Below, piece after piece: positions 80 to 17,376 of a DNA stretch of 64,000 nucleotides. The stretch covers positions 32,001-96,000 of the forward strand of contig JBIPSI010000005.1 in NCBI GenBank assembly GCA_044070495.1. Reading direction: 5' to 3'. The translations under genes were made by a program, and so were the position numbers. This DNA comes from Spirulina sp. Its GTDB lineage: Bacteria > Cyanobacteriota > Cyanobacteriia > Phormidesmidales > Phormidesmidaceae. Below the pieces are notes generated by a model. That model made no database searches and was not told where the DNA came from. It saw nothing but the letters and a program-made list of their open reading frames with translations. How positions within the stretch are numbered: the first letter of the stretch is position 1; each line of letters begins with the position of its first letter.

Positions 80-81
80 GC

Positions 82-912
82 ATGACACAAGCAAAGGCCT
101 GGGCTGAGGTGCTAGGTGAGTCAACGCCGGATACGGACTCGCTACAGGCGGAAATCACCCGCCTACGGAAGAAAACCGTGTTGCCCCTAGAGCATGTCAG
201 CCAGCTTCACGGTTGGCTGGATGGGAAGCGCAAGGCGCGTCAGTCTTGCCGCATTGTGGGGGAATCGAGAACTGGAAAGTCGAGTGCCTGTGAGGCGTAC
301 TTTTACCGAAACAAGCCCACTCAAGCCACGGGCAAGAAGCCGATTGTCCCGGTCGTCTACATTCAGCCGCCACAGAAGTGCGGGTCGAGGGAACTGTTTA
401 AGGAGATCATCGAATTTCTCAAGTATCGGGTGGCTAAGGGGACGGTCTCTGATTTTCGGGGGCGGGCCTTTGAGGTGCTGAAGGGCTGCGAGGTCGAGAT
501 GATCGTCATCGACGAAGCGGATCGGCTGAAGCCCGAGACCTTTGCCGATGTGCGCGATTTTTACGACAAGCTGGCGATTTCGGTGGTCTTAGTCGGCACG
601 GATCGGCTGGATGCCGTCATCAAGCGAGATGAGCAGGTGTATAACCGCTTCCGAGCCTGCTACCGCTTTGGCAAGCTCTCCGGGGAGGACTTTATCAAAA
701 CGGTCAAGATTTGGGAGCAGAAGGTTTTGCTGCTGCCCGTGGCCTCTAACTTAACCAGCAAGGCGATGCAGAAAATTCTGATAGAGGCGACGGAGGGCTA
801 CATTGGCCGCATGGATGAGGTACTGCGGGAGGCGGCGATTCGTGCCTTGAGCCAGGGGCACAAGAAAATTGAGAAGTCGGTGCTGCAAGAGGTGGCTAGG
901 GAGTACAAATAA
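82..912 (+). CDS. tnsC: TnsC/TniB AAA+ ATPase of V-K CAST
   Basis: Walker A GESRTGKS, Walker B IVIDEADRL, typical V-K segments WLDGKRKARQSCR and LVGTDRLDAVIKRDEQVYNRF; ATG 82 preferred over GTG 73. Confidence 0.95.
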   Translation: MTQAKAWAEVLGESTPDTDSLQAEITRLRKKTVLPLEHVSQLHGWLDGKRKARQSCRIVGESRTGKSSACEAYFYRNKPTQATGKKPIVPVVYIQPPQKCGSRELFKEIIEFLKYRVAKGTVSDFRGRAFEVLKGCEVEMIVIDEADRLKPETFADVRDFYDKLAISVVLVGTDRLDAVIKRDEQVYNRFRACYRFGKLSGEDFIKTVKIWEQKVLLLPVASNLTSKAMQKILIEATEGYIGRMDEVLREAAIRALSQGHKKIEKSVLQEVAREYK

Positions 913-1415
913 TGGTGGAGTCTGGGATTCAGCCCTGGTTATTTGAGGTGGAACCTTACCCAGGCGAAAGCCTGAGCCATTACCTAGGGAGGTTTCGGCG
1001 ACGCAATCAACTGACACCGGGCGGGCTGGGAACCATGGCGGGCATTGGGGCGGTGGTGGCCCGTTGGGAAAAGTTTCACCTCAATCCCTATCCCACCCAG
1101 GCGCAGTTTGAGGCGCTGGGGAAGGTGCTAGGGCTATCGGCGGAGCGCCTTTGGGCCATGCTGCCACCTCAAGGAGAGGGGATGGTGCATGAGCCGATTC
1201 GGCTGTGTGGGGCCTGCTATGGGGAGAGTCCCTGTCATCGGATGGAGTGGCAATACAAGTCGGTTTGGAGGTGTGAGCGCCACAACCTCAAGCTACTCTC
1301 TAAGTGCCCTAACTGTGGGGCCAAGTTTAAGGCTCCAGCCCTTTGGGAGGATGGCTGCTGTAGTCGTTGCAAGATATCGTTTGCCATGACCGAAAAACTT
1401 CAAAAATCTAGCTAG
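912..1415 (+). CDS. tniQ: TniQ, short zinc-finger type
   Basis: PYPGESLSHYLGRFRR, ARWEKF, CxxC motifs (CGAC, CPNC, CSRC); TAATG overlap with tnsC. Confidence 0.95.
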   Translation: MVESGIQPWLFEVEPYPGESLSHYLGRFRRRNQLTPGGLGTMAGIGAVVARWEKFHLNPYPTQAQFEALGKVLGLSAERLWAMLPPQGEGMVHEPIRLCGACYGESPCHRMEWQYKSVWRCERHNLKLLSKCPNCGAKFKAPALWEDGCCSRCKISFAMTEKLQKSS

Positions 1416-2035
1416 GGCAAACTAATCTTACTTAACTCAAGCTTGTAAAACTCTTGCTTTTCATCTAAATCTTTATCCTGAAAGATCTCGTTGACTTCTG
1501 AGCTGGAGAGGCATTTTTTCTCGCAAATTATATCAGCAATGTGCGAGATTAAATCCCAATTTTCTTCGACGATTTTCCTCACTGGGTCAAGAAATCTATC
1601 GCTAGATCCTATAGGAAATCCTAGCTTCGTATATTTAGAAAAATCATCTCCTCCGCCTCCTACACTAAGAGAAGCAAAAGGCTCTTCAAATCCCCTGAAA
1701 ATATCCTCTGCTATGGATCCAGCAAATGCTATACAAGTGAAAATATATTTTTCCATCAAGTCTTCGATCAACTCTGGTGGAGTATAAGGAATGTAATTAG
1801 TCTCTCCTCCATTGTCTTTATCTATGGAAGCATTAATTACATCATATCCAAATAGTCGAATCATGAATATATGTCCTGCCTCATGATGGGCAGTTGCCTT
1901 TGCTTCTTCTTCCTGAGACTTGAATGGATTCATTGTGATTATTTTCTTTGTTAGATCGTCTGGAATTCCTGATAATCCATTCCGAATTGAATGCGATTTG
2001 CTTTCCTGATGAAGGGGAGTGCTGATAGAGATCAA
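1412..2035 (-). CDS. Standalone M41/FtsH-protease-like zinc metallopeptidase
   Basis: TAHHEAGH (HExxH), FAGSIAE third-ligand helix, GGDD; AT-rich; true start may be a downstream Met. Confidence 0.75.
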   Translation of the reverse strand: MISISTPLHQESKSHSIRNGLSGIPDDLTKKIITMNPFKSQEEEAKATAHHEAGHIFMIRLFGYDVINASIDKDNGGETNYIPYTPPELIEDLMEKYIFTCIAFAGSIAEDIFRGFEEPFASLSVGGGGDDFSKYTKLGFPIGSSDRFLDPVRKIVEENWDLISHIADIICEKKCLSSSEVNEIFQDKDLDEKQEFYKLELSKISLP

Positions 2036-2068: not shown

Positions 2069-5000
2069 CTAAGGACTCGACTGAGCTTCTTCAAAAACTT
2101 TCTCGGCAAAATCTGGATCTTCCTGCATTTTCTTGAAAAGAGCGGGCATTTTGTCGTAGTGCTGTTTGAGAAACTGCTCTTCACTCTCGGGCAAACGGCC
2201 AGCTAGATAAATCAATTCTTCTTCATCGAGTTCTAAAATACGAGCAATCGCCCGAATAGCATCTTCCTTGGGCGGATAGTCGGCTTTATCGTTCTCTAGC
2301 TTTGACAGATAGGTGAAATTTAGTCCCACCGAGTCAGCTAGCTCTCGCTGGCTCAGCCCTTTTGCCTTCCTCGCCTGGAAGATTACCTGCCCAAAGGTTT
2401 CATCGGTGGTGTACGGGGCGACCGGCTCTCCAGCTCTTTGGGCACGGGGTTGGCGCTTGGTTTTGCCCTGCACCTCTACCCAGCCAATCAGTTGGGTAGA
2501 GAAAGCCCGTTCGGCTTGGGCTAGCCCCTGCTGCTTTAGCTCTCGGTTGAGCATGGGTTCCAGGTATTCGTGAAGTAGTCTTTGCCGCTCTTTGACTTCC
2601 CAGTTAGGGACGGCAGGGGCTTGCATCAAGACATCAATGCCTTTGCGTTCTAGGGTGGGTAGGCGTTTGCCGTTGGGGTTGGTTGCTAGAGATTTGAGGA
2701 CAAACTGTTGTTCCCCTCGTTGTCCCAAAACCTCTATCAACCACCAGGTCAACACCGCTGGCATTTCGTCATCGCCAATGACCGAGGCTCCCAGCTCTTC
2801 AGGCACAACGTTTTGCCACTTCTGTAGTGCCTGCTCCATCACCGGATGGTCTAGCCCCATGAGGTCGAGGGTTTCATTTTCGCAGGCCAGTTCCCGATTG
2901 GTGGTAAATCGCAGTAGCTTGGTGCCCTGGTCACCTCGGAGTTCAAACAGGCTGTCGCCAATGCGGACGACACTCTGTTTTTGATCTTCGAGGGCTGCCG
3001 ATAGGAAACGGATAATGCGATCTAGGCTAGCGCTGACATCGGCGAAGGGTTTGTAGTCATCAATGTTGAAGCCTTCCAGGTCTTGGAATAGCTCAAAGAC
3101 CACTTTGCGGGCCTCTGCTGCGTTGGAAAGGGCATTGGCTAATTCGTGCTGGGTGCGCTTCAAGGTTGGGTCAGACAGCGCCTGTTGATAGAGTTTTTCG
3201 TAGCTCAGGCGTTCGGAGAGTTGGCCGAGAATTTGAGCTTTCAGATCTTCGGCCACTTTGCCATGTTCGTCTACCTTGCCGACGGCTTTGGCAATTTCTT
3301 CTAGCTTTTCTTCCAGCAGCAGAAAGATTTTGCCCTCGATGGTGTCTGAGAGCACGAGGTTATAGACCTGGGCCGTATGGTTTTGCCCATAGCGGTGGAT
3401 GCGACCAATGCGCTGCTCGATATCCATCGGGTTCCAGGGCAGGTCGAAGTTAAACAGCACCCTAGCAAATTGCAGGTTGATGCCCTCTCGCCCTGCTGCG
3501 GTACAAATCAGCACGCGGGGGCCATTCTTTTGGCGGAATTTGCGCTCAGCGGCCAGCTTAGAGCCATGGTCGCCCCCTCGGAGCACTACTACGCCCTGGC
3601 CTGGGTAGGTGGTTTCGATTTCTGCGGCTAGCAGATCGACGGTGCCCAGGTAGGTGGCGAAGATCACGATTTTTTCGGTGGGGTTCTGCTTCCAGAGGTT
3701 GCCCAGGGCGATCATGAGTTTTTCGACCTTGGTTTCTCGGGCGACGGGGAAACTTTCTAGCAAAGCATTAATCCGATCGCGCTCTTCAGGCAGGGCAATT
3801 TTGACGAAGCTCACGGCAGCAGCTTCGGCCTGGCTGGCGTTGATTTCGCCGCTGTAGGCGTCCGAGCCGATTTCTAGTTCACCATCGTCGATCTTTTTGA
3901 GAATGGCGAGCTTAGCCTCGGCTAAGATGCGATCGCACTCGCCCTGGCCCATGGCATTCTCAGGCAGTTGGTACATCTGGCGAATGAGGTATCGAGCCTC
4001 ATCGAGCAGGCGCTCGCGGTTGTCGATGTCGAGTTCTTGGTCGCGCAGGATGGCTTCGTGGATGGTGAGCATCAGCAGCCGTCGCCGCAGGGTGAGGCGC
4101 ACCGCCGCGAAGCTAGAGGCGGCAATTTTTTGAAAAATGGCCATGATGAAGCCCAAGGCCCGTGCCTGGTTGCCCTGCTGCTTGGCTAGGTCAAAGCCAT
4201 CCTGGAGGTATTGGCAGAGCTTGGTGTAGAACTCCCGCTCTTCGTCGGCCATGGTGAAGGATTCGGTTTCCACTTGGCGGCGGGCAAACAGGGTGGAGCC
4301 GTCGGGCCTACAGGCATCGGCCTTGGTGCGGCGAAAGACAATGGTATTGAGGCGATGGCGATTTTCCACCATGTCGTCGGGGTTTTTGAACAGGGTGGAG
4401 TCGAGCAGGTTGGTCAGCATCCAGAAGCGGAAGTGATCGCCCTGGTGGGGGGTAGCGGAGAGCAAGATCAGATCGCGGGTGTGGTCTTTGAGCTTTTCGG
4501 CCAGCTTGTAGTTTTCGGTTTTGCGAACCCGGTTGCCGCTTTTGTAGGCATTGAGGTGATGGGCTTCGTCAAACACCACCAGATCCCAGGTGGGGGCATC
4601 GAGCAGCTTTTTAATGCGGCTAGTGCGTTTGAGGGTGTCGATGCTGACGATTAAATTGTCGTGTTTCTCAAAGGCGTTGGATTTACGGTCAAACACATCG
4701 CCTTCGCTGCCAAAGACTTCAAAATTGAGGTTAAAGACTTCGTTGAGTTCGCGATGCCAGTTGTTGACCAGGCCCGCTGGCACCACCATGAGGGCGCGGT
4801 TGAGTTCTGAGCGGCTGGCCAGTTCGCGCAGCAGCAGGGCGGTTTCAATGGTTTTGCCTAGGCCCACTTCGTCGGCGATTAGGTAGCGGCGGGGGCTGTT
4901 GGTGGCGATGCGGTGGGTAAGCACCACCTGGTGGGGCAGCAGGTCAATTTTGGCGGCGGTGAGGGCGGCGGCGCTTTCCATCAGGGGCAGGGCGTGGGCT

Positions 5001-5239
5001 TCGTGGACGAGCCAGAGCTGTCGCAGCCGTTCCCAGGTGCCAGAAACGTTGTGGATGATGCGCTCGTTTCTGGAGAGTTGGGGGGTGACGCTGGAGAGGG
5101 GCAGTTGCCGTTCGCCGCTGCCAAAGAAGACTCGCACGTAGCCGTTGCGGGGCGCTTCTAGCACCACCCCTTCGCCAAATTCGGCGTGGGTGATGCGCTT
5201 ACCGGGTTGGAGGCTGGCTTCGAGCAGTGGGTTATCCAT
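2069..5239 (-). CDS. SNF2-family helicase with C-terminal XRE-type HTH
   Basis: LIADEVGLGKT, FDEAHH, SATPHQG, GREGINLQ, QRIGRIHRYGQ; C-terminal FGQVIFQARKAKGLSQRELADSVGLNFTYLSKLEND. Confidence 0.92.
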   Translation of the reverse strand: MDNPLLEASLQPGKRITHAEFGEGVVLEAPRNGYVRVFFGSGERQLPLSSVTPQLSRNERIIHNVSGTWERLRQLWLVHEAHALPLMESAAALTAAKIDLLPHQVVLTHRIATNSPRRYLIADEVGLGKTIETALLLRELASRSELNRALMVVPAGLVNNWHRELNEVFNLNFEVFGSEGDVFDRKSNAFEKHDNLIVSIDTLKRTSRIKKLLDAPTWDLVVFDEAHHLNAYKSGNRVRKTENYKLAEKLKDHTRDLILLSATPHQGDHFRFWMLTNLLDSTLFKNPDDMVENRHRLNTIVFRRTKADACRPDGSTLFARRQVETESFTMADEEREFYTKLCQYLQDGFDLAKQQGNQARALGFIMAIFQKIAASSFAAVRLTLRRRLLMLTIHEAILRDQELDIDNRERLLDEARYLIRQMYQLPENAMGQGECDRILAEAKLAILKKIDDGELEIGSDAYSGEINASQAEAAAVSFVKIALPEERDRINALLESFPVARETKVEKLMIALGNLWKQNPTEKIVIFATYLGTVDLLAAEIETTYPGQGVVVLRGGDHGSKLAAERKFRQKNGPRVLICTAAGREGINLQFARVLFNFDLPWNPMDIEQRIGRIHRYGQNHTAQVYNLVLSDTIEGKIFLLLEEKLEEIAKAVGKVDEHGKVAEDLKAQILGQLSERLSYEKLYQQALSDPTLKRTQHELANALSNAAEARKVVFELFQDLEGFNIDDYKPFADVSASLDRIIRFLSAALEDQKQSVVRIGDSLFELRGDQGTKLLRFTTNRELACENETLDLMGLDHPVMEQALQKWQNVVPEELGASVIGDDEMPAVLTWWLIEVLGQRGEQQFVLKSLATNPNGKRLPTLERKGIDVLMQAPAVPNWEVKERQRLLHEYLEPMLNRELKQQGLAQAERAFSTQLIGWVEVQGKTKRQPRAQRAGEPVAPYTTDETFGQVIFQARKAKGLSQRELADSVGLNFTYLSKLENDKADYPPKEDAIRAIARILELDEEELIYLAGRLPESEEQFLKQHYDKMPALFKKMQEDPDFAEKVFEEAQSSP

Positions 5240-5297
5240 GGCGGTGGGGGAGGGAACTCCGGTGGGGGTGGGGAAATTTGAGGCAACCTGGGCCAGG

Positions 5298-5822
5298 TTA
5301 GGAAATGCGCTCTAGGTAAAGACCAATCCAATCGGGGCCTTCGAGGTCGGTGTTGGTGGGGGCATCGGCACGCAGAAGGTGGCCCGCATCGGTGGCGGCT
5401 CCGGCCCACAGGGCACGGCCCATGGCGAGGGTTTGGGCATTGTACCTGCCGCCACAGGCCCAGGTGTAGGCGTTGGTGGCGGGCTGGTGTTTGATGCGTT
5501 TTTGCCCCTGGGGGAGCCAGAAGAGCAACCCGGCTTGGCCTTCGTACTCGTCTTGGAAGCTGAGGATGGCGGGCTGGATAGTGTCTTCGAGGAATTGTTG
5601 GCCGTCGTCGGGGGAGAGGCTATCGAGGGCACCGTCTAACCCGGCGACGACGAGGGTGTTGCCATGGCTGGAGGGCAGGTCATCGGGCCAGTGCTCCTGT
5701 AGGCGCAGAAACTGTCGCAGGGAATAGACTTCGTCGGGGGCGGCGATGGTGGCCAATTTTTCGGCATTCCACAAGAGGGCCATGCCGTTTTTATGCCAGT
5801 TGGGGTTTCGCACGGGTCGCAT
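5298..5822 (-). CDS. Hypothetical 174-aa protein of the DUF499 operon
   Basis: Co-oriented, 6 nt after MTase stop; hydrophobic strand LVVAGLD may be a degenerate Walker B. Confidence 0.75.
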   Translation of the reverse strand: MRPVRNPNWHKNGMALLWNAEKLATIAAPDEVYSLRQFLRLQEHWPDDLPSSHGNTLVVAGLDGALDSLSPDDGQQFLEDTIQPAILSFQDEYEGQAGLLFWLPQGQKRIKHQPATNAYTWACGGRYNAQTLAMGRALWAGAATDAGHLLRADAPTNTDLEGPDWIGLYLERIS

Positions 5823-5828
5823 GGTGAT

Positions 5829-8800
5829 TTACTCCCCAAAGATGGACAGTTGGGTGGTGGTTTCTTGGGGATGCTTGCGCTCCCAAGTTTGCAAAATGCG
5901 GCGAGCCAAGGTGGCAGCCTGACGAATTTCGGCGGTGGCTCCCCGATCTTTGTGCCAGTCGAGCAGGGCGGCGAGGGCAGGGTGGGGTCGAAAGTTGGGG
6001 TTGTTGAGGGTGTCGTTGGCGTTGATGCCGCTGTTCTCGAAGCAGGCTCCGATGAGGATCATGGCTTGGTCGTAGTCGTTGGTGAGGCGCTGGCGGTGTT
6101 TACCATGCCAGGTTTGGGCGATTTCGAGGGGGGAGGTGAGGTAATACACTTTTTTCTGCTGCTTGCACCAGCCGCGTTCTTCAAATTCTTGGGGAGAAAT
6201 GCCCGTGCCGCGCAGGTATTTTTGCATTTGGTCGCGGGGTAGCTCGGTTTGGCGATCAAAGATTCTCAGAAATTGCCGGGTAAAGGGTTCTGCTTCGATG
6301 GGCGGCAGCACGTCGTTGGTGCTGTTTTCTTCGTCCAAAAGCTGAAAGATACCCACCAGCGCTTCTTTAACGGAAATGGGTTTGCCTTCGTCTAAATACA
6401 CTTTGCCATAGTGGCGAGAGTAATATTCTAGGGCTTTGCCTCGCTTAATGACTTGCAGATCGGCCTTGGGCAAACCTGCTTTTTCGTGCAGTTCTAAAAT
6501 GCCTTGCAGTTGGCGAACAGCGTTCAGTACCTCCCGGCGCATTTTGCCCCAGCTTACGGGTTGGGGTTCTTCCATGCGCTTGCGGCAAACGTGGACAATG
6601 TCGTATTCAATCTTTTGAGAACCAAAGGTACCCGGCTTTGAGCCTTCTCCTTTCGTTTCGTCAGAACGAATTGGGTAAGCTTGCTCTAGATAAAAGCCCG
6701 CATCAAAAAGACTTTCAAGGACATCGACCCACGGTTCATCTAAACTATGATGGAATGTAAAAGCTAGTATTCCTCCTGGCTTAAGCAATCGATTTGACTC
6801 GCTCCAGCACTGAGTTAAAAGACGCTTGTAAAAGCCATCAGGATCTTCAGGTTCCCGAGCCTTGTTTGAAAGGCATTCAAGAGCCTTTGGTGAAAATCTT
6901 GCGTCAAAATGCTCAGGATACTTTTCTTTCAGAATCAATTTAAGCCAAACATAGAAAAAGTCTGAAAGCTCTGAGTAATGAAGTAGCCCCCCAAATGGAG
7001 GATCAGTTATTACTGCATCCAAAGATTCACTGTCTCGACTTTTGATACTTGTACAAGAGGACGACTCTATCTCAAAGCTTGTTTCAACAACAGAATCAAA
7101 ACAATTAACTTTAATACTTTTCCCGCTGATTTCATCTGCAAGATAAGTTGGCAAAGATTTTTTTCCAATCAACTCCCAGGGCGAATTAAACCACGCATGG
7201 CCCTTGCGTAAGATCTCCACAGTTGAAGCCCAGGGGCCATACCCCATTGGGCTAAAAACTCCTACCTCAACAACATTAGATTTTGGATGAAAATTACTGT
7301 TTGACAATGCTGGAGCAAGTTTGTCATAGGTCATATGCCAAAAGGAAAACATGCACTGATTGCGAAGATACTGCTGAAATCCCCCTAATACGTATTCTTT
7401 GACTTTCCAAGAGTGATTATGTAAATTATCTTCGCTTATAGCTCTCAATATCTGAGCATGACCCAGTAACTGGCGGCTGTTGAACATCTTCCACCAATGG
7501 GTATACCCATGATTTGGAATCCCCCCATTATTCATGGAAGTCATAAACCCATAGGGCACCTCACTGCGAGGCCAAAAATCAGCTAAATCTTTCTCTTTGC
7601 GGGCTTCCCATTCCCGATCTGCTGCATCAAACCCAGCCGTGTTGGCTACGGGCGCAAAAAAGCGGCCCCCATAGGGCTTGTCTTCCTTCGCGCAGTCTGG
7701 GCAATAGCCCTGAATGGCATACATCGCCACCGGGCCAGTTTTGCGCGTTGCTTTTACCGTCGTCAAAATGTCCTGAGTTGTCCCACAGGCTCCACAGGCA
7801 TAGTGCGACTTCCTCGGCACCGTGCCCACATCCGTTTTTATCGTAATGCCCGTATCTGGGCAGATAACTTCCTCCGGTAATTCACCCCTCACCTCCAGCA
7901 GCTTTATCTTGCTCGCCCGTTCCCGGTTCCAAGCTGCTGTCGCCTCTGGCGTATCCGTCGCGCTGCCGCCATATTCCGTTCCATCCGGTGACATCTTCGG
8001 CGACCCTGCCAACCACTGCGGATGCACCAACAACGACAACGACACCTTCTTCTTCTGCCATCGGGGCATCACCATACCCTTCGATAGCTGCCGATGGCCA
8101 CAGTGCGGGCACGTCACCTTATTTTCCGCATCCAACACCGCATAGGGCGCTTCACCCTCCGCCACCACCAGCGACACCCCCGGTGCCATGCGGGCCTCCT
8201 GCGGTTCCTCATCAAACTTGCCGCCACACTGCTCACACTCCCGATCCAGCCATGCCTTCACCGTCAGCGTTTTCACCGCCATCACCGGGCTGCTCATAAT
8301 CGGTGTGCGGTGGCCACAGCCCGTCACCTGGCAAGGGCCATGCTTCGCCCAAAACACATAGATAATCTCCGGGCCATCGTAGCGATAATCCTTCCGTTCC
8401 TCCGGCGTCAGGCCCAGCGGGTCAAAGGTCTCATCCATCACCCGATTCGTGGAAAGCTGCGTCCACTTGCCCTTGTGCCCCCTAGGGCAATCGCAGGCAT
8501 AGAACGGCATAATCTGCGGCTTTACCTCCGCCTCAATATCCGCCAGCAGCGCCTCCACTTCTTTGATGTCTACCTGGGCCAGCTCATTCTTCACCACAAA
8601 CCAGGCCACCGGGTTTAGGTCTACCCCAAACATCTGCATCCCCAGCCGCGACCCCTCCACAACGGTGGTGCCCCCGCCCATAAAAATATCCGCCACCTTC
8701 AGATGGCTCAGCGCCCCCTTCTTCTGGTGGTTGGCGTAGTACACATCCCACACCGCCTTCGCCGCCTCCGCCGGGTCATCCGGCGCTTTCATCGCCGCCG

Positions 8801-9089
8801 CCAGCAGCAGCGCCCGAAACACACTCGACCGCCGCCGCGCCCACCACTTCGACATTTGGTAAATCGGCTTGCCCGCATTGCCCTCAATCGCCGCAATCTG
8901 GTTAATCGGCAAAATCGGGAAGTCTACCTCCAGGCACGTCTTAGGCCGATTGGGGTCAGAGAAATCCACCGTCTCCACCGCTACCGGACGGCCTGCCCCC
9001 ACCGCCTTGGCCACCTGCTCCGCCAGCCACTCTTTTTTGGTTTGCTTCTTCTCTCGTGCCACGGTTGCCCTATCCTTTGCTGATTTCAA
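5829..9089 (-). CDS. DUF1156-type adenine-specific DNA methyltransferase with zinc ribbons
   Basis: KWWARR, motif I DIFMGGG, DLNPVA, motif IV TDPPF, LKPGGILAFTFHH, several CxxC pairs. Confidence 0.9.
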   Translation of the reverse strand: MKSAKDRATVAREKKQTKKEWLAEQVAKAVGAGRPVAVETVDFSDPNRPKTCLEVDFPILPINQIAAIEGNAGKPIYQMSKWWARRRSSVFRALLLAAAMKAPDDPAEAAKAVWDVYYANHQKKGALSHLKVADIFMGGGTTVVEGSRLGMQMFGVDLNPVAWFVVKNELAQVDIKEVEALLADIEAEVKPQIMPFYACDCPRGHKGKWTQLSTNRVMDETFDPLGLTPEERKDYRYDGPEIIYVFWAKHGPCQVTGCGHRTPIMSSPVMAVKTLTVKAWLDRECEQCGGKFDEEPQEARMAPGVSLVVAEGEAPYAVLDAENKVTCPHCGHRQLSKGMVMPRWQKKKVSLSLLVHPQWLAGSPKMSPDGTEYGGSATDTPEATAAWNRERASKIKLLEVRGELPEEVICPDTGITIKTDVGTVPRKSHYACGACGTTQDILTTVKATRKTGPVAMYAIQGYCPDCAKEDKPYGGRFFAPVANTAGFDAADREWEARKEKDLADFWPRSEVPYGFMTSMNNGGIPNHGYTHWWKMFNSRQLLGHAQILRAISEDNLHNHSWKVKEYVLGGFQQYLRNQCMFSFWHMTYDKLAPALSNSNFHPKSNVVEVGVFSPMGYGPWASTVEILRKGHAWFNSPWELIGKKSLPTYLADEISGKSIKVNCFDSVVETSFEIESSSCTSIKSRDSESLDAVITDPPFGGLLHYSELSDFFYVWLKLILKEKYPEHFDARFSPKALECLSNKAREPEDPDGFYKRLLTQCWSESNRLLKPGGILAFTFHHSLDEPWVDVLESLFDAGFYLEQAYPIRSDETKGEGSKPGTFGSQKIEYDIVHVCRKRMEEPQPVSWGKMRREVLNAVRQLQGILELHEKAGLPKADLQVIKRGKALEYYSRHYGKVYLDEGKPISVKEALVGIFQLLDEENSTNDVLPPIEAEPFTRQFLRIFDRQTELPRDQMQKYLRGTGISPQEFEERGWCKQQKKVYYLTSPLEIAQTWHGKHRQRLTNDYDQAMILIGACFENSGINANDTLNNPNFRPHPALAALLDWHKDRGATAEIRQAATLARRILQTWERKHPQETTTQLSIFGE

Positions 9090-10065
9090 TAAACGGCGAC
9101 GCTACCTCCAACACACTCAGCCCCCCGTGGGTGAGCGTGGGGTAGCCGCTTTGGCCCTTCCATTTGCGACGGCCCAACACATAGCGATGGCACCCCCGGC
9201 GCGAGTCCAACACCACGTCAATCGGCGGGTTCCAGTTACCGAGAGGCTCCTTGGGGTCAGCCCATCGGCCATTCTTAAATGCAGATTTGAGATAATCGGC
9301 CTGTTCCCCATCCGCATTGGCAAACAGACTGCTAGCCGCATAGCCGTGGTCAGAGGTGATCACCAACCGCCGCCCCGTCGCCAGCCGCTCCACCAAGGCC
9401 CAAAAATCATCGCTGGTGAGGTTTTTTTCTGCCTCTAGAGCTAGCTTATCTAGCCCCGACCCAGCTTTTTCACCCAGCTCATGCACCCGATTGTCGGGCC
9501 AGTGGTGCCACAGCACCCAGTGGCGCTCTGAACCGATCATCGTTGAACAATCGATCCAGGGCAAATCTAAGCTCTCGGTCACTGCCCCTGCCAGCCGGTG
9601 CGAGTGCCCCGCCTGGTTATTGGCCAGGGCCGACCGCTGGGCAAACCCTAACGCTTGGGCAAAGGGGGTGGTATCGGCGGGCAGTTCGGCCCCCGTCACC
9701 TTGGTCTGTAGAATCTGAAACCCTCGCGCTTGGGCACCCTGGAGCAACCAGGGTACCTCCCGCAGGGAAAGGCCATCTAAAATCAGCACCGCTTTGCCCC
9801 CCAGTTGGCGATTCCACCAACTCGCTAGGGCATCGGCGGTGTGCTCCACTTCGGCATCGTAGGTCTGCCACAGATCCCAGGCGGCAGAGGCGAGGAACAG
9901 GTCAACGGCCTCCAGATCGCGATCGCGCTGCACGATGGTCGGGCCAACCTTGCCGGGCGGTACTGGCGGGCTAAAGATCTGCCACGCATAGGCAAAAATC
10001 GCCGCCCACCCCGCCGAGGCCGGAGCCGTTAAGGCCTTTTGCAGAAGTTCTAGGGAAGCCGTCAT
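9070..10065 (-). CDS. Short PglZ-like alkaline-phosphatase-fold protein
   Basis: LILDGLSLRE, PADT, ITSDHGY and HGGLS..E metal-binding motifs typical of PglZ. Confidence 0.82.
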   Translation of the reverse strand: MTASLELLQKALTAPASAGWAAIFAYAWQIFSPPVPPGKVGPTIVQRDRDLEAVDLFLASAAWDLWQTYDAEVEHTADALASWWNRQLGGKAVLILDGLSLREVPWLLQGAQARGFQILQTKVTGAELPADTTPFAQALGFAQRSALANNQAGHSHRLAGAVTESLDLPWIDCSTMIGSERHWVLWHHWPDNRVHELGEKAGSGLDKLALEAEKNLTSDDFWALVERLATGRRLVITSDHGYAASSLFANADGEQADYLKSAFKNGRWADPKEPLGNWNPPIDVVLDSRRGCHRYVLGRRKWKGQSGYPTLTHGGLSVLEVASPFIEISKG

Positions 10066-12842
10066 TAGCCTTCCTCCTTATCGAGTTCGAGGCCATAGGT
10101 CAGCCCGTCGGGCAGGTTTTTCAGCAGCTTTTGCAGTTGTGCCCCGGTCAACGACTCCACGCTAAGGGTCAGGTTTTTCACCTGGGATCCGGGGTTGATG
10201 CCCCACTCGTCAGTGGCCTTGGCATAGAGGTTGAGGGCAGAGGTGGCCGGGGTGAAACGGCGAGACACCTGGGCTGGTGGCGTAGAGTCAAAGATGGATC
10301 CGCCCATTGATCCACCCGTGGTACCTACCCCTGTGCCTGGGTCGGGTTCGTGGGGTATGGGTGGTGGTGGTGTGGTGGGCGGGGGGTAGGGGGTGTCTCC
10401 GGTCGGTATCGTCGGGGGCGATCCACCAGAATCGGGCGACACAATGCTGGTACTGCTCGATCCTGTGGAGGCGGGCGGGGCAGAGGAGCCGGACGACGAC
10501 CCATCGGAGGTGGGGGCGGCCTGGGGCAGTTGCAGGTAGGTTTCTTCTAGGTGTCTGCCGCTGGGGAGCTTTGCCTTCATGCGGTGATAGGCAGCGGATT
10601 CCTCTTCTCCTGGCTTGGCCTGGATGGTTTCTCGCCCCTGGAGGTTGATGGCCAGTTTGCCCTGGGCACAGAGGCGAATTAGCTTTTCCTTCACCTGCAC
10701 TTCCCCTAGCCAAGGAATGCAGTCTCTGCCGTTCGTGCGGGGTTCTTGCAGTTCGCTCAACAGCTTGCTCACCGAGTCGCCATTGGTCGTTGCCTCCAGC
10801 ACCTGCTCCTCAAAGTCTTCAGGAATAAAGATGTCCCGACGCAGGCGTTCTTCAATAGCATCGGGAATCTTAGATCCCTTAGCCTGCAACCCTTCCACCA
10901 CAAACTGACAGCGGTTCGGTTCGCCATAGTTCCAGGTTTGCAGAATCGCAAAGCGATCAAAGCGATCCTGAAGGGCCTCCTGCAACTGTCGATGATATTT
11001 CTTTTCAAACCCCTTATATTCAGGGCTTTGCCCTTGCCATTCCTTGGCTTTGAGCACGGCCCGCGCCAAAACAATCAAGTCGCGGTCGTAGTAGGCGTTT
11101 GAGCTGCCTACTTTGGGCAGCAGAAACCGAATGGTATTGCGGCGTTTGGGCACATGCTCCTTCAGCCAAGGGCCAAGCCGTTCATTCAGCTTAGCCACCT
11201 CCTCCGGAATCACCAGGATAGGCAATCGGGCATCCCACTGGTCGGGGTGTTCAGCGGGGTCGAGTTCTCCCCACGGATTGCTAAGCCATTGGGTAGGCAG
11301 CACAATCACCCGGAAATCTCCCCGCAGATCGCCGCTGCCCGCCAGGGCGTAGCGAATCTCGTTGCGCAGGTGCAACTGATCGGAACCGTCCTCAAACAGA
11401 CGATCGTTACGGGCAAAGGCCATCAGCTTGGTCTGGGGGTTGTCCTCTACCTGGAACACCAGGCGATCGCCCAGCCGATGAATGTTGAAGCTGTTCTCGG
11501 CGATGGTCTCTAGCTCAACCTGGAAGGCGTTTTCATCAATGGCGCGATCGCGGGTGATGTCGAGCTGGAGCGTTGCTGGATCGGCCCCGGTTAGCCGACT
11601 AACAGAAAGAGAACGCACCCATAGCGCCCCCATAACTTCCGACAGATGGGGCACCTCAGCATCTGGCCGCTTCACCGCCTCGCGGACAGCGACTAGGTTG
11701 CGCTGGGCCTTATCCCTAAGACTAAGATGACGCTGCCCCACCACCGAATCGAGCAATGAAGCTACCCCACTGACCTCATCATCGACCCGAAAATCAGCGG
11801 CGGTAATCAGCGGGCGATCACTATGGCGCTTGAATAAGTCAGCCAGAATTTTGATCAGGTCGCGGGTGTCCTGAGCCTCCGTGGCCACTAATATCTGGTC
11901 TTCCAACAACTGGAGCAGATGGGGAGCAAAGGGCCAAGCCTCAATAAATTCCTGCTGTTTGCGCTCCTGTTCGGTGGGCGGCACTGCTCTAAGCCGAAAA
12001 TACTCCGCCACATGGGCCTGGGTAAGGGATTCGATGGCTGACTCAGCCACCTGCATACGGTTCTCAAACAGTCGATGCAGCAGCAGTTTCCGGCGTTCGG
12101 AAGCGGCGTTAGGCCCCTCAAAGTCAATCAGGACAGGGTTCACCCGGTGGATTTGTAGATAGGCATCGGTTCCACCATTACGGACAGAAACTACCAGGGA
12201 CAGTAGATCGGGGTACTCCTGAGCAATTTCAGAGAGCATCTGAATAAAGCTAAACGCCCAGGTACGTGCCGGTAGCCGTTTGCTGTTTGTCAGGGCGTCG
12301 TACCAGGTCTGGAACTCGTCCAGAATCAGAACAATAGGTTGCTTCTGTAAAAGTTCTATAACGAGGTCATGGGGGAGAATGTCTGTTTTTTTGTCTCCCA
12401 TGCCTTCCCACTTACCCCGAATGTAATTCCCCTCCGGGTGTTCCTCCAGAATTAAATCCCATAAGTATTTGTACCTCTGGCGGTTGAGGTTGACGCTAAT
12501 GACCTGGGTATCGGTGCGGGGCCGTAGCCCAGCGATGTAGGGGCTACCAAGCTGCGCGGCCCAGTAGTTTAGCCATGTTGCGATTGCGTCAGGGGTCTTG
12601 ATGGCATGGTAGAGAGCCGCCATCAGGTGAGATTTACCTTTGCCGCGCTCACCCATCAACACCACCGGTCGCCCTTCCCCCGGCGCGAGGGCTGCCAACG
12701 TCTTGAGCAAATCGGTAGAAGGATAGGTAATGGCAAGGAACTGCTCAGCGGGAAGCTTACTCGCCTCCACCAAGTCGATTTGCGTTCCCTTGAGTCGTTT
12801 TCCTTCAAATTCTGAACGCAGTTGTAGGCCTAGCATAGGCAC
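10065..12842 (-). CDS. DUF499-family AAA+ ATPase (BrxC-related)
   Basis: Walker A GERGKGKSH, Walker B LILDEFQ, WPFAP, Q.TRDLI; Pro/Ser/Gly linker before small C-terminal domain; TAATG coupling to next gene. Confidence 0.85.
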   Translation of the reverse strand: MPMLGLQLRSEFEGKRLKGTQIDLVEASKLPAEQFLAITYPSTDLLKTLAALAPGEGRPVVLMGERGKGKSHLMAALYHAIKTPDAIATWLNYWAAQLGSPYIAGLRPRTDTQVISVNLNRQRYKYLWDLILEEHPEGNYIRGKWEGMGDKKTDILPHDLVIELLQKQPIVLILDEFQTWYDALTNSKRLPARTWAFSFIQMLSEIAQEYPDLLSLVVSVRNGGTDAYLQIHRVNPVLIDFEGPNAASERRKLLLHRLFENRMQVAESAIESLTQAHVAEYFRLRAVPPTEQERKQQEFIEAWPFAPHLLQLLEDQILVATEAQDTRDLIKILADLFKRHSDRPLITAADFRVDDEVSGVASLLDSVVGQRHLSLRDKAQRNLVAVREAVKRPDAEVPHLSEVMGALWVRSLSVSRLTGADPATLQLDITRDRAIDENAFQVELETIAENSFNIHRLGDRLVFQVEDNPQTKLMAFARNDRLFEDGSDQLHLRNEIRYALAGSGDLRGDFRVIVLPTQWLSNPWGELDPAEHPDQWDARLPILVIPEEVAKLNERLGPWLKEHVPKRRNTIRFLLPKVGSSNAYYDRDLIVLARAVLKAKEWQGQSPEYKGFEKKYHRQLQEALQDRFDRFAILQTWNYGEPNRCQFVVEGLQAKGSKIPDAIEERLRRDIFIPEDFEEQVLEATTNGDSVSKLLSELQEPRTNGRDCIPWLGEVQVKEKLIRLCAQGKLAINLQGRETIQAKPGEEESAAYHRMKAKLPSGRHLEETYLQLPQAAPTSDGSSSGSSAPPASTGSSSTSIVSPDSGGSPPTIPTGDTPYPPPTTPPPPIPHEPDPGTGVGTTGGSMGGSIFDSTPPAQVSRRFTPATSALNLYAKATDEWGINPGSQVKNLTLSVESLTGAQLQKLLKNLPDGLTYGLELDKEEG

Positions 12843-12999
12843 GCTCTAACTAAAGTTGGCAAACGATATCCAGTAGGGGCAGGCACTCGATGGGGACAAA
12901 GGGAACCCTTGTCAGATCCACAGATAACTGAAAAGGCTCCAATTTCGACCAGACAAACCGGGTCAGGATACCCCCAGATGAATCCATAGTACCCAAGAC

Positions 13000-13076
13000 T
13001 TGAAAAAAACATCAACTCGATGTTGACGTAGAAATCAACATCGGTTAGCTTGGTGGACAGTTGACGAAAAAATCAA
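13000..13076. promoter_or_regulatory. Three TTGA-N8-TCAA palindromic operators overlapping a sigma70-like promoter
   Basis: Sites at 13000-13015, 13023-13038 and 13061-13076; -35 TTGACG 13023-13028, 17 bp spacer, -10 TAGCTT 13046-13051. Confidence 0.75.
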
Positions 13077-13092
13077 GTTTTGGAGATTACCG

Positions 13093-14487
13093 ATGTCTAC
13101 ACCACCTTCTGTTTCCCTCAAGGCTCACGCCCCTGTCGCTGTCCGGCAGGTCAGCTTGTTTGATGAGCTAAGCGATTCGGGCTTTCACCCGCTCCATGTT
13201 CCCTTAGATGTGCTGGTCAGCATTCCAGCCAGCATCCGGCAAGACGAAATCCGATTGAATGACTATCTCATCCACGGCCTAAAGCTCGGCCTAGGGGCAC
13301 TCGCTCAGGCTGCCGTAAGCCTCGACACCACCGAGTACGTAGCCACTATCCAGCGGGAGTTTGCCGCCATTCAACAGTCCTGGAGCCAGCTCCAGACTGA
13401 GAGCCGCCAAGAGCTAGAACAGCTCATTGACCAAGAGTTGACCGGTGAAAATTCGGCCCTCGCCACCGAGCTAAAGCGCTATCTTGCTGACGGGGGCACC
13501 TTCACCAAGGCACTAGAGGATATTCACCGCAAACTTGCCGATCCCAATAACTTGACCAGCATTCCTGGCCAGGTCAAAGCGCTTTTGTCGGCAGCGTTTG
13601 AGCAGGCCGATGCCCCCTTCCGCAAAGCCCTAAGTATCGCTGACCACAACTCCCCCCTAGGCCAACTGCTGGAGCACCAGCAGCGAGAGCTAGCCAACCA
13701 CAAGGCGGCGATCACTCAACTGCACACCAACCTACATCAAGAGTTTAAGGAGCAGTTCGAGCTGATCAAAAACGGCCTGAACATTCAGGCACTGCTGGAG
13801 CAGCAGCAGGCAGAGCAATCGGCCCTGCTGGAAAAGAGCATCCAAAAAGGTCGCCCGTTTGAGGTTGTGGCCGCTGAGTGCCTAGACCAGGCCAGCCGCT
13901 ACTGTAAAGATATCGTCACTCCCCTAAGTGACGAGTTGGTGGAGGGCACTGGACGCAAGGTGGGCGATGTGCTGGTGGAAATCTTCGATGAAGCCTGCGC
14001 CGATATCAAGATCGTCGTAGAAACCAAGGCGGGTCAGTACAACATCGGCGGCAAGCGGGGGCTAATCAAACAAATGCAGGAGGCGATGGAGTTTCGCAAT
14101 GCCCAGGCTGCGATCGCCGTCGTTCACCGTGATTACGCCAAGCAAAACCAAGCCGTCTACAGCGAGTTAGGTCACAACCTTGTCATGGTTGCCGTAGATC
14201 CTGACAATGAGGAGTCTGGGTTGTTGCCCCTAGAGCTGGCCTATCTCTCTACTCGCTCTAAGCTGATTGCGCTCCACCGCAAAGGCAGCTCAGAGCAGCT
14301 TGATCTCAATGCTATCCAGCAAACTATCGATCAGCTATCGGCTTGCCTCAACAGCGCCCAGGCCATGAAAGCCAACTGCACCGCCGCCAAAACCAGTGTC
14401 GATAAGGTCTACGCAGATATTCAGCAGATGGAGTCAGGGGTCAAGCAGCAACTATCGACTCTCCGCTCTCAATTGGGGCTGGCTTAG
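13093..14487 (+). CDS. Coiled-coil protein with putative PD-(D/E)xK nuclease domain (RmuC/DUF2130-like architecture)
   Basis: GGAG RBS; long Q/E/L helical region, then KGRPFE...VGDVLV...IVVETK, then C-terminal coiled coil. Confidence 0.7.
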   Translation: MSTPPSVSLKAHAPVAVRQVSLFDELSDSGFHPLHVPLDVLVSIPASIRQDEIRLNDYLIHGLKLGLGALAQAAVSLDTTEYVATIQREFAAIQQSWSQLQTESRQELEQLIDQELTGENSALATELKRYLADGGTFTKALEDIHRKLADPNNLTSIPGQVKALLSAAFEQADAPFRKALSIADHNSPLGQLLEHQQRELANHKAAITQLHTNLHQEFKEQFELIKNGLNIQALLEQQQAEQSALLEKSIQKGRPFEVVAAECLDQASRYCKDIVTPLSDELVEGTGRKVGDVLVEIFDEACADIKIVVETKAGQYNIGGKRGLIKQMQEAMEFRNAQAAIAVVHRDYAKQNQAVYSELGHNLVMVAVDPDNEESGLLPLELAYLSTRSKLIALHRKGSSEQLDLNAIQQTIDQLSACLNSAQAMKANCTAAKTSVDKVYADIQQMESGVKQQLSTLRSQLGLA

Positions 14488-14621: not shown

Positions 14622-16505
14622 ATGGCCCAAAAAACGATTCAATGCCGCCTAGTCGCCCCTGCTGAGACTCGTCAATACCTGTGGACACTCGCCGCCGAAA
14701 AGAACACACCGCTGATTAACGCCCTCATCCAGGGCATCGTCACCCACGAGGACTTTGAAACCTGGCGAATTAAGGGCCGACATCCCGCCGATGTTGTAAC
14801 CAAGCTCTGCAAAAGCCTGAAAACAGAAGCCCCCTTCTCCGGTCAGCCCTCCCGGTTCTATGCCTCCGCCGAAAAAGCCGTCAACTACATCTTCAAGTCC
14901 TGGTTTACCCTGCAACGCCGCCTCCAACAGAAAATCTCTGGCCAACAAACCTGGCTCACCATCCTCAAAAGCGATGACGAGCTAGTGGAGCTATGTGGCC
15001 ATGCGTTAGAAGATATCCAAGATAAAGCCGCCCAGATTTTGGATGACGCTGAAACAGCGATTGAGGAGGAAGGGCATTCAGGCCAATCGAAACAAACCGC
15101 CATCAGAGCACATCTGTTCAAAAAGCACGACCAGGCCAAACAACCCCTGATTCGCTGTGCCACCGCCTATCTCCTCAAAAACGGGGGCAAAATTCCCGAC
15201 CAGCCCGAAGACCCTGAGAAATTTGCCCACCGCCGCCGCAAAGCCGAAATCCAGGTGCAGCGCCTCCAAGACCAACTCGAAGCCCGCCTTCCCAAGGGCC
15301 GAGACCTCACCGGACAAACTTGGCTTTCCACCCTGCTCACCGCCACCACCACCGTCCCCAAAGACAACCGCGAACATAAGCAGTGGCAAGACAAACTGTT
15401 GGCCCAGCCCCGCACCATCCCCTTCCCCATCCTGTTTGAAACCAACGAAGACCTCGTCTGGTCACGGAATGCCTCCGGTCGTCTCTGTGTACGATTCAAC
15501 GGCCTGAGCGAACATCGGTTTCAAATCTACTGCGACCAACGGCAACTGCCCTGGTTTCAGCGATTCCTAGACGACCAAGAAACCAAGCGGGCCAGCAAAA
15601 ACCAGCACTCCAGCGCCCTCTTTGCCCTGCGTTCTGCCCGCCTCTCCTGGCAAGAATGCGATGACCACCAAGGCCACCCCTGGGATGCCCACACCCTCAC
15701 CCTCTCCTGCACCGTCGATACCCGCCTCTGGAGCGCTGAGGGCACCGACGACGTGCGCCAGGAAAAAGCTGCCGAGGTCTCCCAGATACTCACCCGCCTC
15801 AACGAGAAAGGTGACTTATCCAAAACCCAGGCAGGCTATGCCAAACGCCTCACCTCCACCCTAGAGCGCCTCGATAGCTCCTTCCATCGCCCCAGCCGCC
15901 CCCGCGACCAAGGACAAGCCCATATCATCGCTGGCCTCAGCCTGGGCTGGGATGTCCCGCTTACCCTAGCGATTTGGAACGCTAGCACCCAGGAAATCCT
16001 GACCTATCGCAGCCTCCGCCAACTCCTGGGTCAAGACTACAGCCTCTTCCTCAAACACCGCCGAGATCAACAGCAGCAGTCCCATCGCCGCCACAAGGCC
16101 CAGCGGCAGGGCAAAGATAACCGCTTTGGCACCTCCCACCTGGGAGAACATATTGATCGCCTACTGGCCAAGGCCGTCGTCGCTGTGGCCCAACAACACG
16201 GAGCCGGGAGCATCGCCATCCCCAAGCTAGACAACATCCGCGAAACCCTTCAGGCCGAAATTCAGACCAAAGCCGAGCAAAAAGCGCCCGGTTCCATCGA
16301 AGGGCAGAAACGCTACGCCAAGCAATACAAGATCAGCATCCACAAATGGAGCTACAGCAGGCTACTCGATCAAGTGGCCAGCAAAGCCGCCCAGCAAGGA
16401 CTCGTCATCGAAACCGTCAAACAACCCTGGCGGCAAAATCCCCAGGAGCGGGCAAAAGCCGTAGCCATAGCCGCCTACGAGGCACGACAAACGATAGTAC
16501 CTTAG
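14622..16505 (+). CDS. cas12k: Cas12k (C2c5), type V-K effector with inactive RuvC
   Basis: MAQKTIQCRL, LAAEKNTPLIN, AYLLKNG, PKGRD, FQIYCDQRQLPWFQRFLDDQ, NQHSSALF, VDTRLWSAEGT, HKWSYSRL; RuvC-I lacks Asp (AGLSLG). Confidence 0.97.
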   Translation: MAQKTIQCRLVAPAETRQYLWTLAAEKNTPLINALIQGIVTHEDFETWRIKGRHPADVVTKLCKSLKTEAPFSGQPSRFYASAEKAVNYIFKSWFTLQRRLQQKISGQQTWLTILKSDDELVELCGHALEDIQDKAAQILDDAETAIEEEGHSGQSKQTAIRAHLFKKHDQAKQPLIRCATAYLLKNGGKIPDQPEDPEKFAHRRRKAEIQVQRLQDQLEARLPKGRDLTGQTWLSTLLTATTTVPKDNREHKQWQDKLLAQPRTIPFPILFETNEDLVWSRNASGRLCVRFNGLSEHRFQIYCDQRQLPWFQRFLDDQETKRASKNQHSSALFALRSARLSWQECDDHQGHPWDAHTLTLSCTVDTRLWSAEGTDDVRQEKAAEVSQILTRLNEKGDLSKTQAGYAKRLTSTLERLDSSFHRPSRPRDQGQAHIIAGLSLGWDVPLTLAIWNASTQEILTYRSLRQLLGQDYSLFLKHRRDQQQQSHRRHKAQRQGKDNRFGTSHLGEHIDRLLAKAVVAVAQQHGAGSIAIPKLDNIRETLQAEIQTKAEQKAPGSIEGQKRYAKQYKISIHKWSYSRLLDQVASKAAQQGLVIETVKQPWRQNPQERAKAVAIAAYEARQTIVP

Positions 16506-17292: not shown

Positions 17293-17376
17293 GTGGGAAT
17301 TATCTGTGTATGATGGCCAAATGACATAATTAGGGACTTTGGCTAGTGCTGAAGACCTCAGAAGACAGAATAAACC

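Follow-up and report, generated by a model that had tools for sequence, protein, structure and literature searches.

What kind of defence system is encoded by a compact five-gene operon that a CRISPR-associated transposon (CAST) carries in Spirulina sp., and what does the DNA-binding domain at the end of its helicase do? The operon occupies positions 2069-12842 of the window, the 64,000-nucleotide stretch of contig JBIPSI010000005.1 analyzed here, to which all coordinates refer unless another source is named. A preliminary description of this DNA saw in it the cores of two antiphage systems, bacteriophage exclusion (BREX) and the restriction-like operons with DUF499, DUF1156 and SNF2 proteins, and proposed a hybrid whose architecture had perhaps already been noted computationally. 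This last suspicion was right: the operon is a member of the Type-3 BREX-Related (BR) systems, a type defined computationally by Rakesh & Krishnan (Nucleic Acids Res 2026; PMC12839542) and catalogued in 2025-26, with a clade-specific regulatory fusion. The combination of cores stands, but it is no one-off hybrid, being a widespread and defined subtype (333 species genomes here and 569 taxa in the published survey). It is likely, in our judgment, that the five genes form a Type-3 BR (DUF499-centred) defence system that is the main cargo of a complete type V-K CAST and that works by the mechanism proposed below. New here are the modelled fold of a 174-aa protein and its predicted pairing with PglZ, together with a clade-specific helix-turn-helix (HTH) fusion accompanied by conserved promoter boxes; this is a rare version of Type-3 BR. 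As the system is already catalogued, the value of the locus lies in these variant features and in testable predictions, not in a new class.

All five genes lie on the minus strand. Gene A (10065-12842) encodes a DUF499-type AAA+ ATPase of 925 aa, gene B (9070-10065) a stand-alone PglZ of 331 aa, gene C (5829-9089) a DUF1156 N6-adenine DNA methyltransferase of 1086 aa, gene D (5298-5822) a 174-aa protein with a predicted degenerate P-loop fold, and gene E (2069-5239) a Swi2/Snf2 helicase with an XRE-HTH tail, 1056 aa in all. A, C and E were identified from Pfam, PADLOC and motifs, B from a structure model and Foldseek, and D from a structure model. The junctions, read directly from the sequence, bear out the tight packing and coupling first described: A and B share a TAATG with a 1-nt overlap and with AAGGAGGA in front, and the stop of B (9070) overlaps the listed TTG start of C. 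The true start of C is likely to be the in-frame GTG at 9062 (residue 10) rather than this TTG, because homologues begin to align there; the B-C gap is then 7 nt. The C-D and D-E gaps are 6 and 58 nt, respectively. None of the five frames is interrupted or short in comparison with homologues, the gene coupling is preserved, and a motif search found the catalytic motifs of A, B, C and E intact, including the Walker A, SDHG, DPPF and DEAH motifs singled out in the preliminary description. The original observation is real and was correctly interpreted, and the system is probably functional for defence.

The arrangement is far beyond chance, because 65 of 80 related genome loci have the same five genes in the same order, A-B-C-D-E. 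The loci come from a scan of 185,579 species genomes (one per species), in which 333 of 376 pattern-matched stretches encode a relative of the mini-PglZ; the genome-locus counts given here and below cover the best 80 of the 333 stretches, compared by tblastn with the window proteins. Identity to the window in the 65 loci, for the best aligned segment, is 49-70% for A, B, C and E and 40-55% for D. Hosts include Planctomycetota, Acidobacteriota, Pseudomonadota, Bacteroidota, Verrucomicrobiota and Cyanobacteriota, and the complete loci sit among other defence genes. In the remaining 15 loci the available DNA ends before the other genes; L031 and L057 have an unmatched stretch after B. Homologues of gene B form at least 2446 clusters at 90% identity, and the gene D family comprises 403 clusters at 90% identity and 338 at 50%.

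Type-3 BR systems are described as consisting of a DUF499 ATPase, an N6-methyltransferase (in a subset with two four-cysteine zinc fingers), a nuclease-less BrxHII-like helicase, a stand-alone active PglZ and, in 82% of taxa, iSTAND, an inactive STAND NTPase whose Walker motifs are eroded and which has a beta insert behind strand 4; the helicase is reported to have inactive restriction-endonuclease and C-terminal alpha+beta domains (PMC12839542). All five kinds of component are found in the Spirulina operon, in separate genes at one locus: a DUF499 ATPase, a methyltransferase of the DUF1156/BrxXI kind with a zinc-finger insert, a helicase without a nuclease domain in Pfam, a stand-alone PglZ and a small protein. 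For the last of these the published assignment is iSTAND, whereas here only a 'P-loop-like' fold is supported. The operon also differs in the XRE-HTH at the C-terminus of its helicase and in three boxes at its promoter, the term 'XRE' being absent from the main text of PMC12839542, and in its location within a type V-K CAST, whereas that main text does not contain 'Tn7' and has 'transposon' only in its references.

The ATPase and the methyltransferase are assigned by sequence families. Gene A matches AAA_16 (7e-8) and DUF499 (3e-6; 25.7 bits, cut-off 23) in Pfam, has a Walker A motif (GERGKGKS, residues 64-71) and a Walker B motif (VLILDE, 171-176), and ends in a Pro/Ser/Gly-rich linker near residues 790-860 followed by a small C-terminal domain. 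It is 51-58% identical to its relatives in other phyla and, by analogy, may be a loader or scaffold of the BrxC/MtsA kind. Gene C matches DUF1156 (2.8e-6; 27.8 bits, cut-off 24) and has an N6_N4 methyltransferase motif region in Pfam; PADLOC adds DUF1156_MTase (4.8e-18), and NCBIfam gives DUF1156_antiphage at 3e-24, under the cut-off of that model. FMGGG is found at residues 136-140 and DPPF at 696-699, and four CxxC motifs (285, 327, 432 and 463) lie in a large insert between motif I and motif IV.

Comparison with better known systems shows which parts are shared and which are exchanged. MANTIS (Gao_RL), or Type-2 BR, is the one BR type whose mechanism has been worked out; it is described as using ATPase-loaded hemimethylation at 6-bp asymmetric sites and restriction via a helicase-nuclease, for which all components are needed (Shaw et al., bioRxiv 2026; 10.64898/2026.09.23.753747). 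It shares with the operon a DUF499 AAA+ ATPase, a small accessory protein, an N6-adenine methyltransferase and an SF2 helicase-type effector. However, MANTIS has MtsB (DUF3870 in the preprint, DUF3780 in PMC12839542) and a PLD nuclease on its helicase, where the operon has PglZ and the P-loop-like protein, and some MANTIS operons are reported to encode a separate Arc/CopG-type repressor, MtsR, whereas the XRE domain here is part of the helicase itself. The PADLOC model PLD_Helicase matches only the helicase C-lobe (residues 523-655), and neither a PLD nor a DUF3780 domain is found by Pfam.

Hma, a Type-1 BR system with a helicase-nickase tested in Halomonas (Liu et al., Microb Biotechnol 2024; PMC11232893), provides the best PADLOC matches for three of the five proteins (HmaA for E, 1.2e-97; HmaB for C, 7.9e-31; HmaC for A, 3.9e-8), the outcome of a check that the preliminary description had proposed. 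The hma locus is described as a hotspot for defence-gene insertion (PMC11232893), and the related loci studied here behave likewise. HmaA is reported to rely on a C-terminal PD-(D/E)xK nickase domain, which the operon lacks, having PglZ and the 174-aa gene in addition; gene E matches the HmaA model no further than profile position 692 of 1176, and its C-terminus is an HTH.

BREX (types 3 and 1) resembles the operon in having a PglX/PglXI-like methyltransferase (8e-20 in PADLOC), a BrxHI/BrxHII-like helicase (6.5e-96 over residues 97-858) and a PglZ catalytic domain. The PglZ of BREX is about 800 aa long with extra domains, whereas gene B has only a helical N-terminus and the catalytic core in its 331 aa. 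PADLOC found no BrxA, BrxF, BrxL or BrxC among the ten proteins scanned, and no BrxC match for gene A; the DUF6079-type BrxC, BrxA, BrxF and long multidomain PglZ of type 3 BREX are missing from the operon. MADS was rejected, as only weak mad2 (1.4e-5) and mad8 (0.0094) matches were obtained, and so were DISARM and Dpd, because the DrmD and DpdE matches reflect the shared Snf2 core only.

Gene B is called PglZ by structure, because sequence alone gives a weak assignment. The sequence matches are to the C-terminal part of BREX_PglZ_4 in NCBIfam (6.6e-4) and, in a profile search of the PDB, to PorX (0.03); some family members are flagged PF08665 in a precomputed table, and gene B is unmatched in PADLOC and PHROGs. 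An AlphaFold2 model based on a 26-sequence alignment (pLDDT 83.9, pTM 0.88) has an N-terminal helical region (about residues 1-88) followed by a catalytic core of the alkaline-phosphatase/NPP fold. Foldseek matched this model to PorX (8tfm_A, E 7.6e-9) and to the PglZ of Acinetobacter BREX (9zn5_B, E 3.3e-6), with NPP/autotaxin ranked behind, in agreement with the initial reading of a PglZ cut down to about 330 aa. Residues invariant in the 26 sequences include D97, S100, D191, H195, D239, H240 and H313, an order that we take to be typical of the two-metal site of the superfamily, and the motifs LDGLS, WHHWPD...H, SDHG (238-241) and THGG are present. Gene B, as modelled, has a PglZ fold in which the metal- and nucleophile-type residues are all conserved.

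Gene D has no match in Pfam, NCBIfam, PADLOC or PHROGs; the best E-value in a Pfam scan of 27 family members was 0.033, and profile searches of the PDB gave no useful match. A route through the ESM Atlas led nowhere (its own model has a pLDDT of 0.42 and a TM below 0.5). A model built from a 63-sequence alignment reaches a pLDDT of 96.3, and Foldseek found nothing under E 0.28 with it. Exhaustive VIA structure searches gave best Z scores of 4.7 (pdb_via_wide) and 4.9 (pdb_via), and P-loop ATPase cores make up all 50 of the pdb_via matches listed and all but a handful of the 50 listed for pdb_via_wide. They include RecA, Rad51/DMC1 and inactive paralogues, AAA+ proteins and KaiC, as well as the STAND protein Avs4 (Z 3.8). 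In the model, the segment VVAGLDG (58-64; VVAGLDGALD) forms a strand-loop-helix at the place of Walker A but lacks the Walker A Lys and Ser/Thr, the next, 'Walker B' strand ends in WLPQG, and a beta hairpin (110-122) follows the strand at 98-102. A degenerate P-loop-like fold with an eroded Walker A is supported by these features of the model. Gene D is also the fastest-evolving component, with 50-82% identity against 75-92% for the helicase of the same loci.

A complex of B and D was predicted with an ipSAE of 0.91, the best of three controls scoring 0.00; this mark is reached by 116 of 157 solved complexes and by 2 of 215 mismatched pairs, counts that are rough here as custom alignments were used. 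The runs share at least 96% of contacts, with a partner pLDDT of at least 88, and place residues 2-13, 53-65 and 275-280 of B against residues 29-42, 60-81 and 102-104 of D. In the predicted complex, the degenerate P-loop face of D thus packs against the helices at the N-terminus of the mini-PglZ. BrxB of type I BREX, which has an inactivated AAA+ domain, is reported to form a tight heterodimer with PglZ(1-98) and to bridge to the ATPase domain of BrxC (PMC13326643). Although BrxB and gene D have no detectable sequence similarity, the predicted B:D pairing parallels that of BrxB and PglZ and therefore supports, at the level of models, a BrxB-like adaptor role for D.

Gene E matches SNF2-rel_dom (9e-22), Helicase_C and HTH_3 (1e-10, residues 955-1009) in Pfam, and no nuclease family is among its Pfam matches, so that the helicase does end in an HTH rather than a nuclease, as first described. 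It contains the motifs GLGKT (126), DEAH (224-227) and QRIGRIHRYGQ (609). A BrxHII-type helicase takes up about residues 1-925 and the XRE-HTH tail about residues 940-1056 (window 2072-2422). The stop of the helicase gene is visible at 55 genome loci and comes 0-33 residues past the last aligned residue (about 920-947 of the query), with the exceptions of L066 (51 residues beyond), L061 (92 beyond) and L011, which aligns to query residue 976 and ends 29 beyond. When the tail (926-1056) was used as a query near the helicases of the genome loci, it was found only in L008, as a separate XRE gene of 122 aa. No shared regulator was found behind the helicase of other loci either: the 48 neighbours include one XRE and three Peptidase_S24 proteins.

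The fused tail has been seen in few other places. A database search with the tail returned four other clusters (P0242-P0245; 633-1055 aa, 67-74% identical), a metagenome scan returned five loci with the same gene order and fused tail (L100-L104, of which L103 is cut before A and B), and a genome of the same class, G178, has the same operon with a tailed helicase of 1055 aa; besides the window, the fusion was seen only in these. The metagenome scan also gave two free-standing XRE homologues, and the tail is homologous to free-standing XRE proteins of 112-122 aa. The PglZ tree has 84 rows, namely the window, 79 genome loci (the eightieth failed a filter), L100, L101, L102 and L104, with G178 and L103 left out. 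In it, the five HTH-bearing rows fall into one group (ultrafast bootstrap 84, SH-aLRT 78). Its sister (86/93) is a cyanobacterial locus from Laspinema on a contig that stops short of the helicase. The fusion of the HTH tail is specific to this clade, and probably cyanobacterial.

A pattern search identified three operator-like boxes, TTGAY-N6-KTCAA, upstream of gene A on the minus strand, at 13061-13076, 13023-13038 and 13000-13015; their function as operators is putative. A candidate promoter (12986-13076, minus strand) includes them, the left half of box 3 (13010-13015) being -35-like and lying 18 nt before TACTAT (12986-12991). The pattern has three matches in the 64 kb, all upstream of gene A, against 0.39 expected and with three or more in 0 of 100 shuffles, a count that is not independent because the pattern was derived from the same three copies. 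L104 and G178 have three boxes at the same spacing upstream of gene A (box 1 is degenerate in G178) and also keep TACTATGGATT 18 nt after the TTGAYG of box 3; the DNA around these elements has diverged, and gene A is only about 59% identical to that of the window. Box conservation rests on the window, L104 and G178. None of the 80 tail-less genome loci has a triple-box array, although single matches occur. Boxes and tail are found together in all three HTH-bearing loci with readable upstream DNA (the window, L104 and G178), and autoregulation is therefore suggested: box 3 would overlap the -35 element of the operon promoter, and the tail would act as an autorepressor.

Such a circuit has a counterpart in mobile restriction-modification (R-M) systems. 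There, controller (C) proteins, which are small and of the XRE-type HTH kind, bind repeated palindromic boxes over the promoter of their own operon and time restriction after entry into a new host. C proteins are free, whereas in the present clade the HTH forms the C-terminal end of the helicase and its binding to the boxes is putative.

Several observations on the HTH-bearing relatives stand apart from regulation. The L100 helicase is 91.5% identical to that of the window, with only 66-75% identity for A-D, and in L101 the methyltransferase is 96% identical and D 82%. These mosaic identities suggest an exchange of modules between systems. In the G178 operon (L111, G178:C1 8319-12086), the methyltransferase aligns as query residues 9-622 and 619-1086 with about 530 nt between the two parts, and 768 nt separate B from C. 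The G178 methyltransferase may thus carry an insertion or be disrupted.

The operon is the main cargo of a complete type V-K CAST, with tnsB-tnsC-tniQ, cargo, cas12k, a short CRISPR array and an adjoining tRNA gene, as the preliminary description's RNA-guided transposon requires. The genes tnsC (73-912, plus strand; PADLOC TnsC_V-K, 6e-110) and tniQ (912-1415, plus; TniQ_V, 1.8e-78) lie on one side of the cargo, preceded by tnsB (L107:4328-6079; Mu-transpos_C and rve), which is mostly upstream of the window and ends at about window position 79. On the other side are cas12k (14622-16505, plus; Cas12k, 9e-262), a CRISPR array of four repeats found by repeat search (17045-17296) and tRNA-Gly (17540-17610, minus) on the right side of the element, after which housekeeping genes follow. 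Between tniQ and cas12k are only the five operon genes and two others, of 207 aa and 464 aa, and the operon accounts for 10.8 of about 13.2 kb of cargo. No relative of gene B was found in any of the 24 other genomes of the genus searched, which supports a recent acquisition of the operon; among 16 other genomes of the class, one has gene B. Tn7-like transposons, cyanobacterial ones included, are reported to carry defence cargo that includes BREX, with BrxC in 40 of them (PMC8649781). Spread by an RNA-guided transposon holds for the present copy, but not elsewhere: none of the six other loci of the HTH clade has TnsC, TniQ or Cas12k in the short flanks examined. For this reason the CAST link is specific to the present copy.

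The mechanism that we consider likely is built by analogy with MANTIS and type I BREX. The DUF499 ATPase would load the DUF1156 methyltransferase on short asymmetric sites, and ATP turnover would support N6-adenine methylation or hemimethylation of host DNA. On unmodified invading DNA, the ATPase-methyltransferase complex would recruit the Snf2 motor. D would couple PglZ to the ATPase, as BrxB bridges PglZ to BrxC, and the D:PglZ pair would be the effector, acting by metal-dependent nicking or phosphodiester cleavage; PglZ would then stand in for the helicase-fused nuclease of Types 1 and 2 (PD-(D/E)xK or PLD). The XRE tail would be a fused controller that binds the three boxes over the operon promoter and damps expression, comparable to the C proteins of mobile R-M systems. 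DNA cutting by PglZ and the role of the tail are the least certain elements of this mechanism.

A number of points count against this account. A full-text literature search found no experimental work on any Type-3 BR system; the preliminary description's 'best candidate for an uncharacterised system' holds in this experimental sense, but not in the sense of a new system. Methylation, defence and PglZ nuclease activity are attributed to the operon by analogy. The sequence matches of gene B to PglZ, in NCBIfam and the PDB profile search, are weak, and no Pfam match at E<=0.01 was found in any of the 26 family members. For gene D, hhalign against 16 BrxB sequences from the cyanobacterial phylum gave probabilities of at most 0.5%, structural Z scores are only 4.9 or less, and neither the label 'iSTAND'/STAND nor that of a BrxB homologue is established; the B:D score expresses model confidence and is not a measurement. 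With respect to regulation, the left half of the box is a generic -35-like TTGAC, three tail-less loci (L054, L062 and L079) have single box matches upstream of gene A, and the boxes sit in a region common to the operon and the divergent 464-aa gene.

PglZ might be no DNA-cutting effector at all, and instead a phosphodiesterase or phosphatase acting on a nucleotide or a protein, or a regulator, with a BREX-like block of replication by the ATPase-methyltransferase-helicase complex in place of cleavage. Its closest solved folds fit such a role, as the first is PorX, described as a phosphodiesterase on cyclic and linear oligonucleotides (PMC12839542), and NPP-type phosphodiesterases come next. 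However, a nuclease fills the slot of PglZ in Types 1 and 2 BR, and the PglZ of type-1 BREX nicks DNA in a metal-dependent manner according to work cited in the same paper, which makes a non-cutting PglZ rather unlikely. A doubtful but slightly more credible alternative concerns the tail, which might anchor the helicase to DNA or guide it there, or might act towards phage factors as a sensor or a decoy, the boxes being bound by another protein or being plain promoter elements. A repressor is seldom attached covalently to a 925-residue motor, one half-site in the boxes is -35-like, and most such systems run without a tail (55 of 55 helicase genes with the stop in view) and with an XRE gene just downstream in only 1 of 48 cases. 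Autoregulation, on the other hand, accords with the joint occurrence of boxes and tail in the three readable loci, with the absence of a triple-box array from the 80 tail-less loci and with the homology of the tail to free-standing XRE proteins.

The operon could also serve the transposon, as an R-M-like addiction or competition module that stabilizes the CAST or excludes rival elements, phage defence being incidental. Most of the cargo of a complete CAST consists of this operon, which is not found in the 24 congeneric genomes searched, and a built-in repressor fits the establishment control that is typical of mobile R-M systems. Methylation-restriction modules and BREX are, moreover, known cargo of Tn7-like elements (PMC8649781). 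Yet CAST genes are found in none of the six same-clade loci, with their short flanks, and other defence genes surround the 65 complete loci of other genomes, so that the system is not tied to an element of the CAST kind. A transposon-serving role is improbable on this evidence, and it and host defence are not mutually exclusive. That the operon is a decaying or inactive remnant is barely credible, given five open and full-length frames, intact catalytic motifs and preserved gene coupling. The reading of a Type-3 BR defence system with a PglZ effector and a fused controller is retained.

A more speculative proposal, on which we would not rely, extends this reading to the clade as a whole, as a self-controlled minimal BREX-like machine. 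In it, the XRE domain of the helicase would read three operators at its own promoter, so that the last-made and potentially dangerous component throttles the system, and D with the N-terminal helices of PglZ would be a stripped-down equivalent of BrxB:PglZ. If this is true, a CRISPR-guided transposon could bring a methylation-restriction system safely into naive genomes, and the 10.8-kb operon would be the smallest natural system for dissecting the unsolved effector step of BREX. How BREX-type systems arrest phage DNA is still unsolved, and PglZ is their least understood core part; Type-3 BR keeps only the catalytic PglZ domain and a small partner beside the ATPase-methyltransferase-helicase core. 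A compact and intact copy is a tractable object for asking whether PglZ acts as the effector and the 174-aa protein as its adaptor, and how safety is ensured when the system moves. The locus is also a concrete case of a CAST whose cargo is almost wholly one defence system.

Elsewhere, the Type-3 BR operon is an insertion hotspot for other defence modules, whereas the window copy has no inserts. They occur in the B-C gap (L027, L034, L035, L041, L042, L062, L069 and L079), the D-E gap (L027, L035, L054, L064 and L068), the C-D gap (L040 and L048) and the A-B gap (L032). Co-oriented contents include SIR2 with HerA, an AAA+ protein with a subtilase, AAA_21 with DUF4276, and Schlafen/AlbA_2 with a ParA-like ATPase; a HIRAN protein and a C5 methylase with HEF_HK and a receiver domain are further examples. 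In the PglZ tree, L058 and L061 have identical PglZ proteins in metagenome-assembled genomes (MAGs) of Akkermansiaceae and Proteobacteria, respectively, and L047, from a 'Synechococcus' MAG, nests among Comamonadaceae. These placements reflect either very recent transfer or binning errors.

The two other cargo genes were rejected as members of the operon, since tblastn found neither in the 80 genome loci, L100-L106 or G178. The 207-aa gene (1412-2035, minus strand) follows the HTH-tailed helicase gene after 33 nt and runs into the stop region of tniQ; it encodes a peptidase-like protein with HEAGH at residues 51-55 and a weak Peptidase_M41 match (E 0.0016), and had been considered as a sixth member or ImmA-like partner of the XRE domain. 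The 464-aa gene (13093-14487, plus strand), divergent from the operon, has no family match. Its Atlas look-alike clusters contain DUF2130 (13% of members) or Mrr_cat (12%), a hint that the protein combines a coiled coil with a restriction-endonuclease-like part. To the left of the CAST are an NB-ARC/TPR STAND protein of 628 aa (L107:1456-3342, minus) and a 150-aa fragment with an Arm-DNA-binding domain (L107:3419-3871, minus). Thus, the CAST appears to sit in a defence or mobile-element island.

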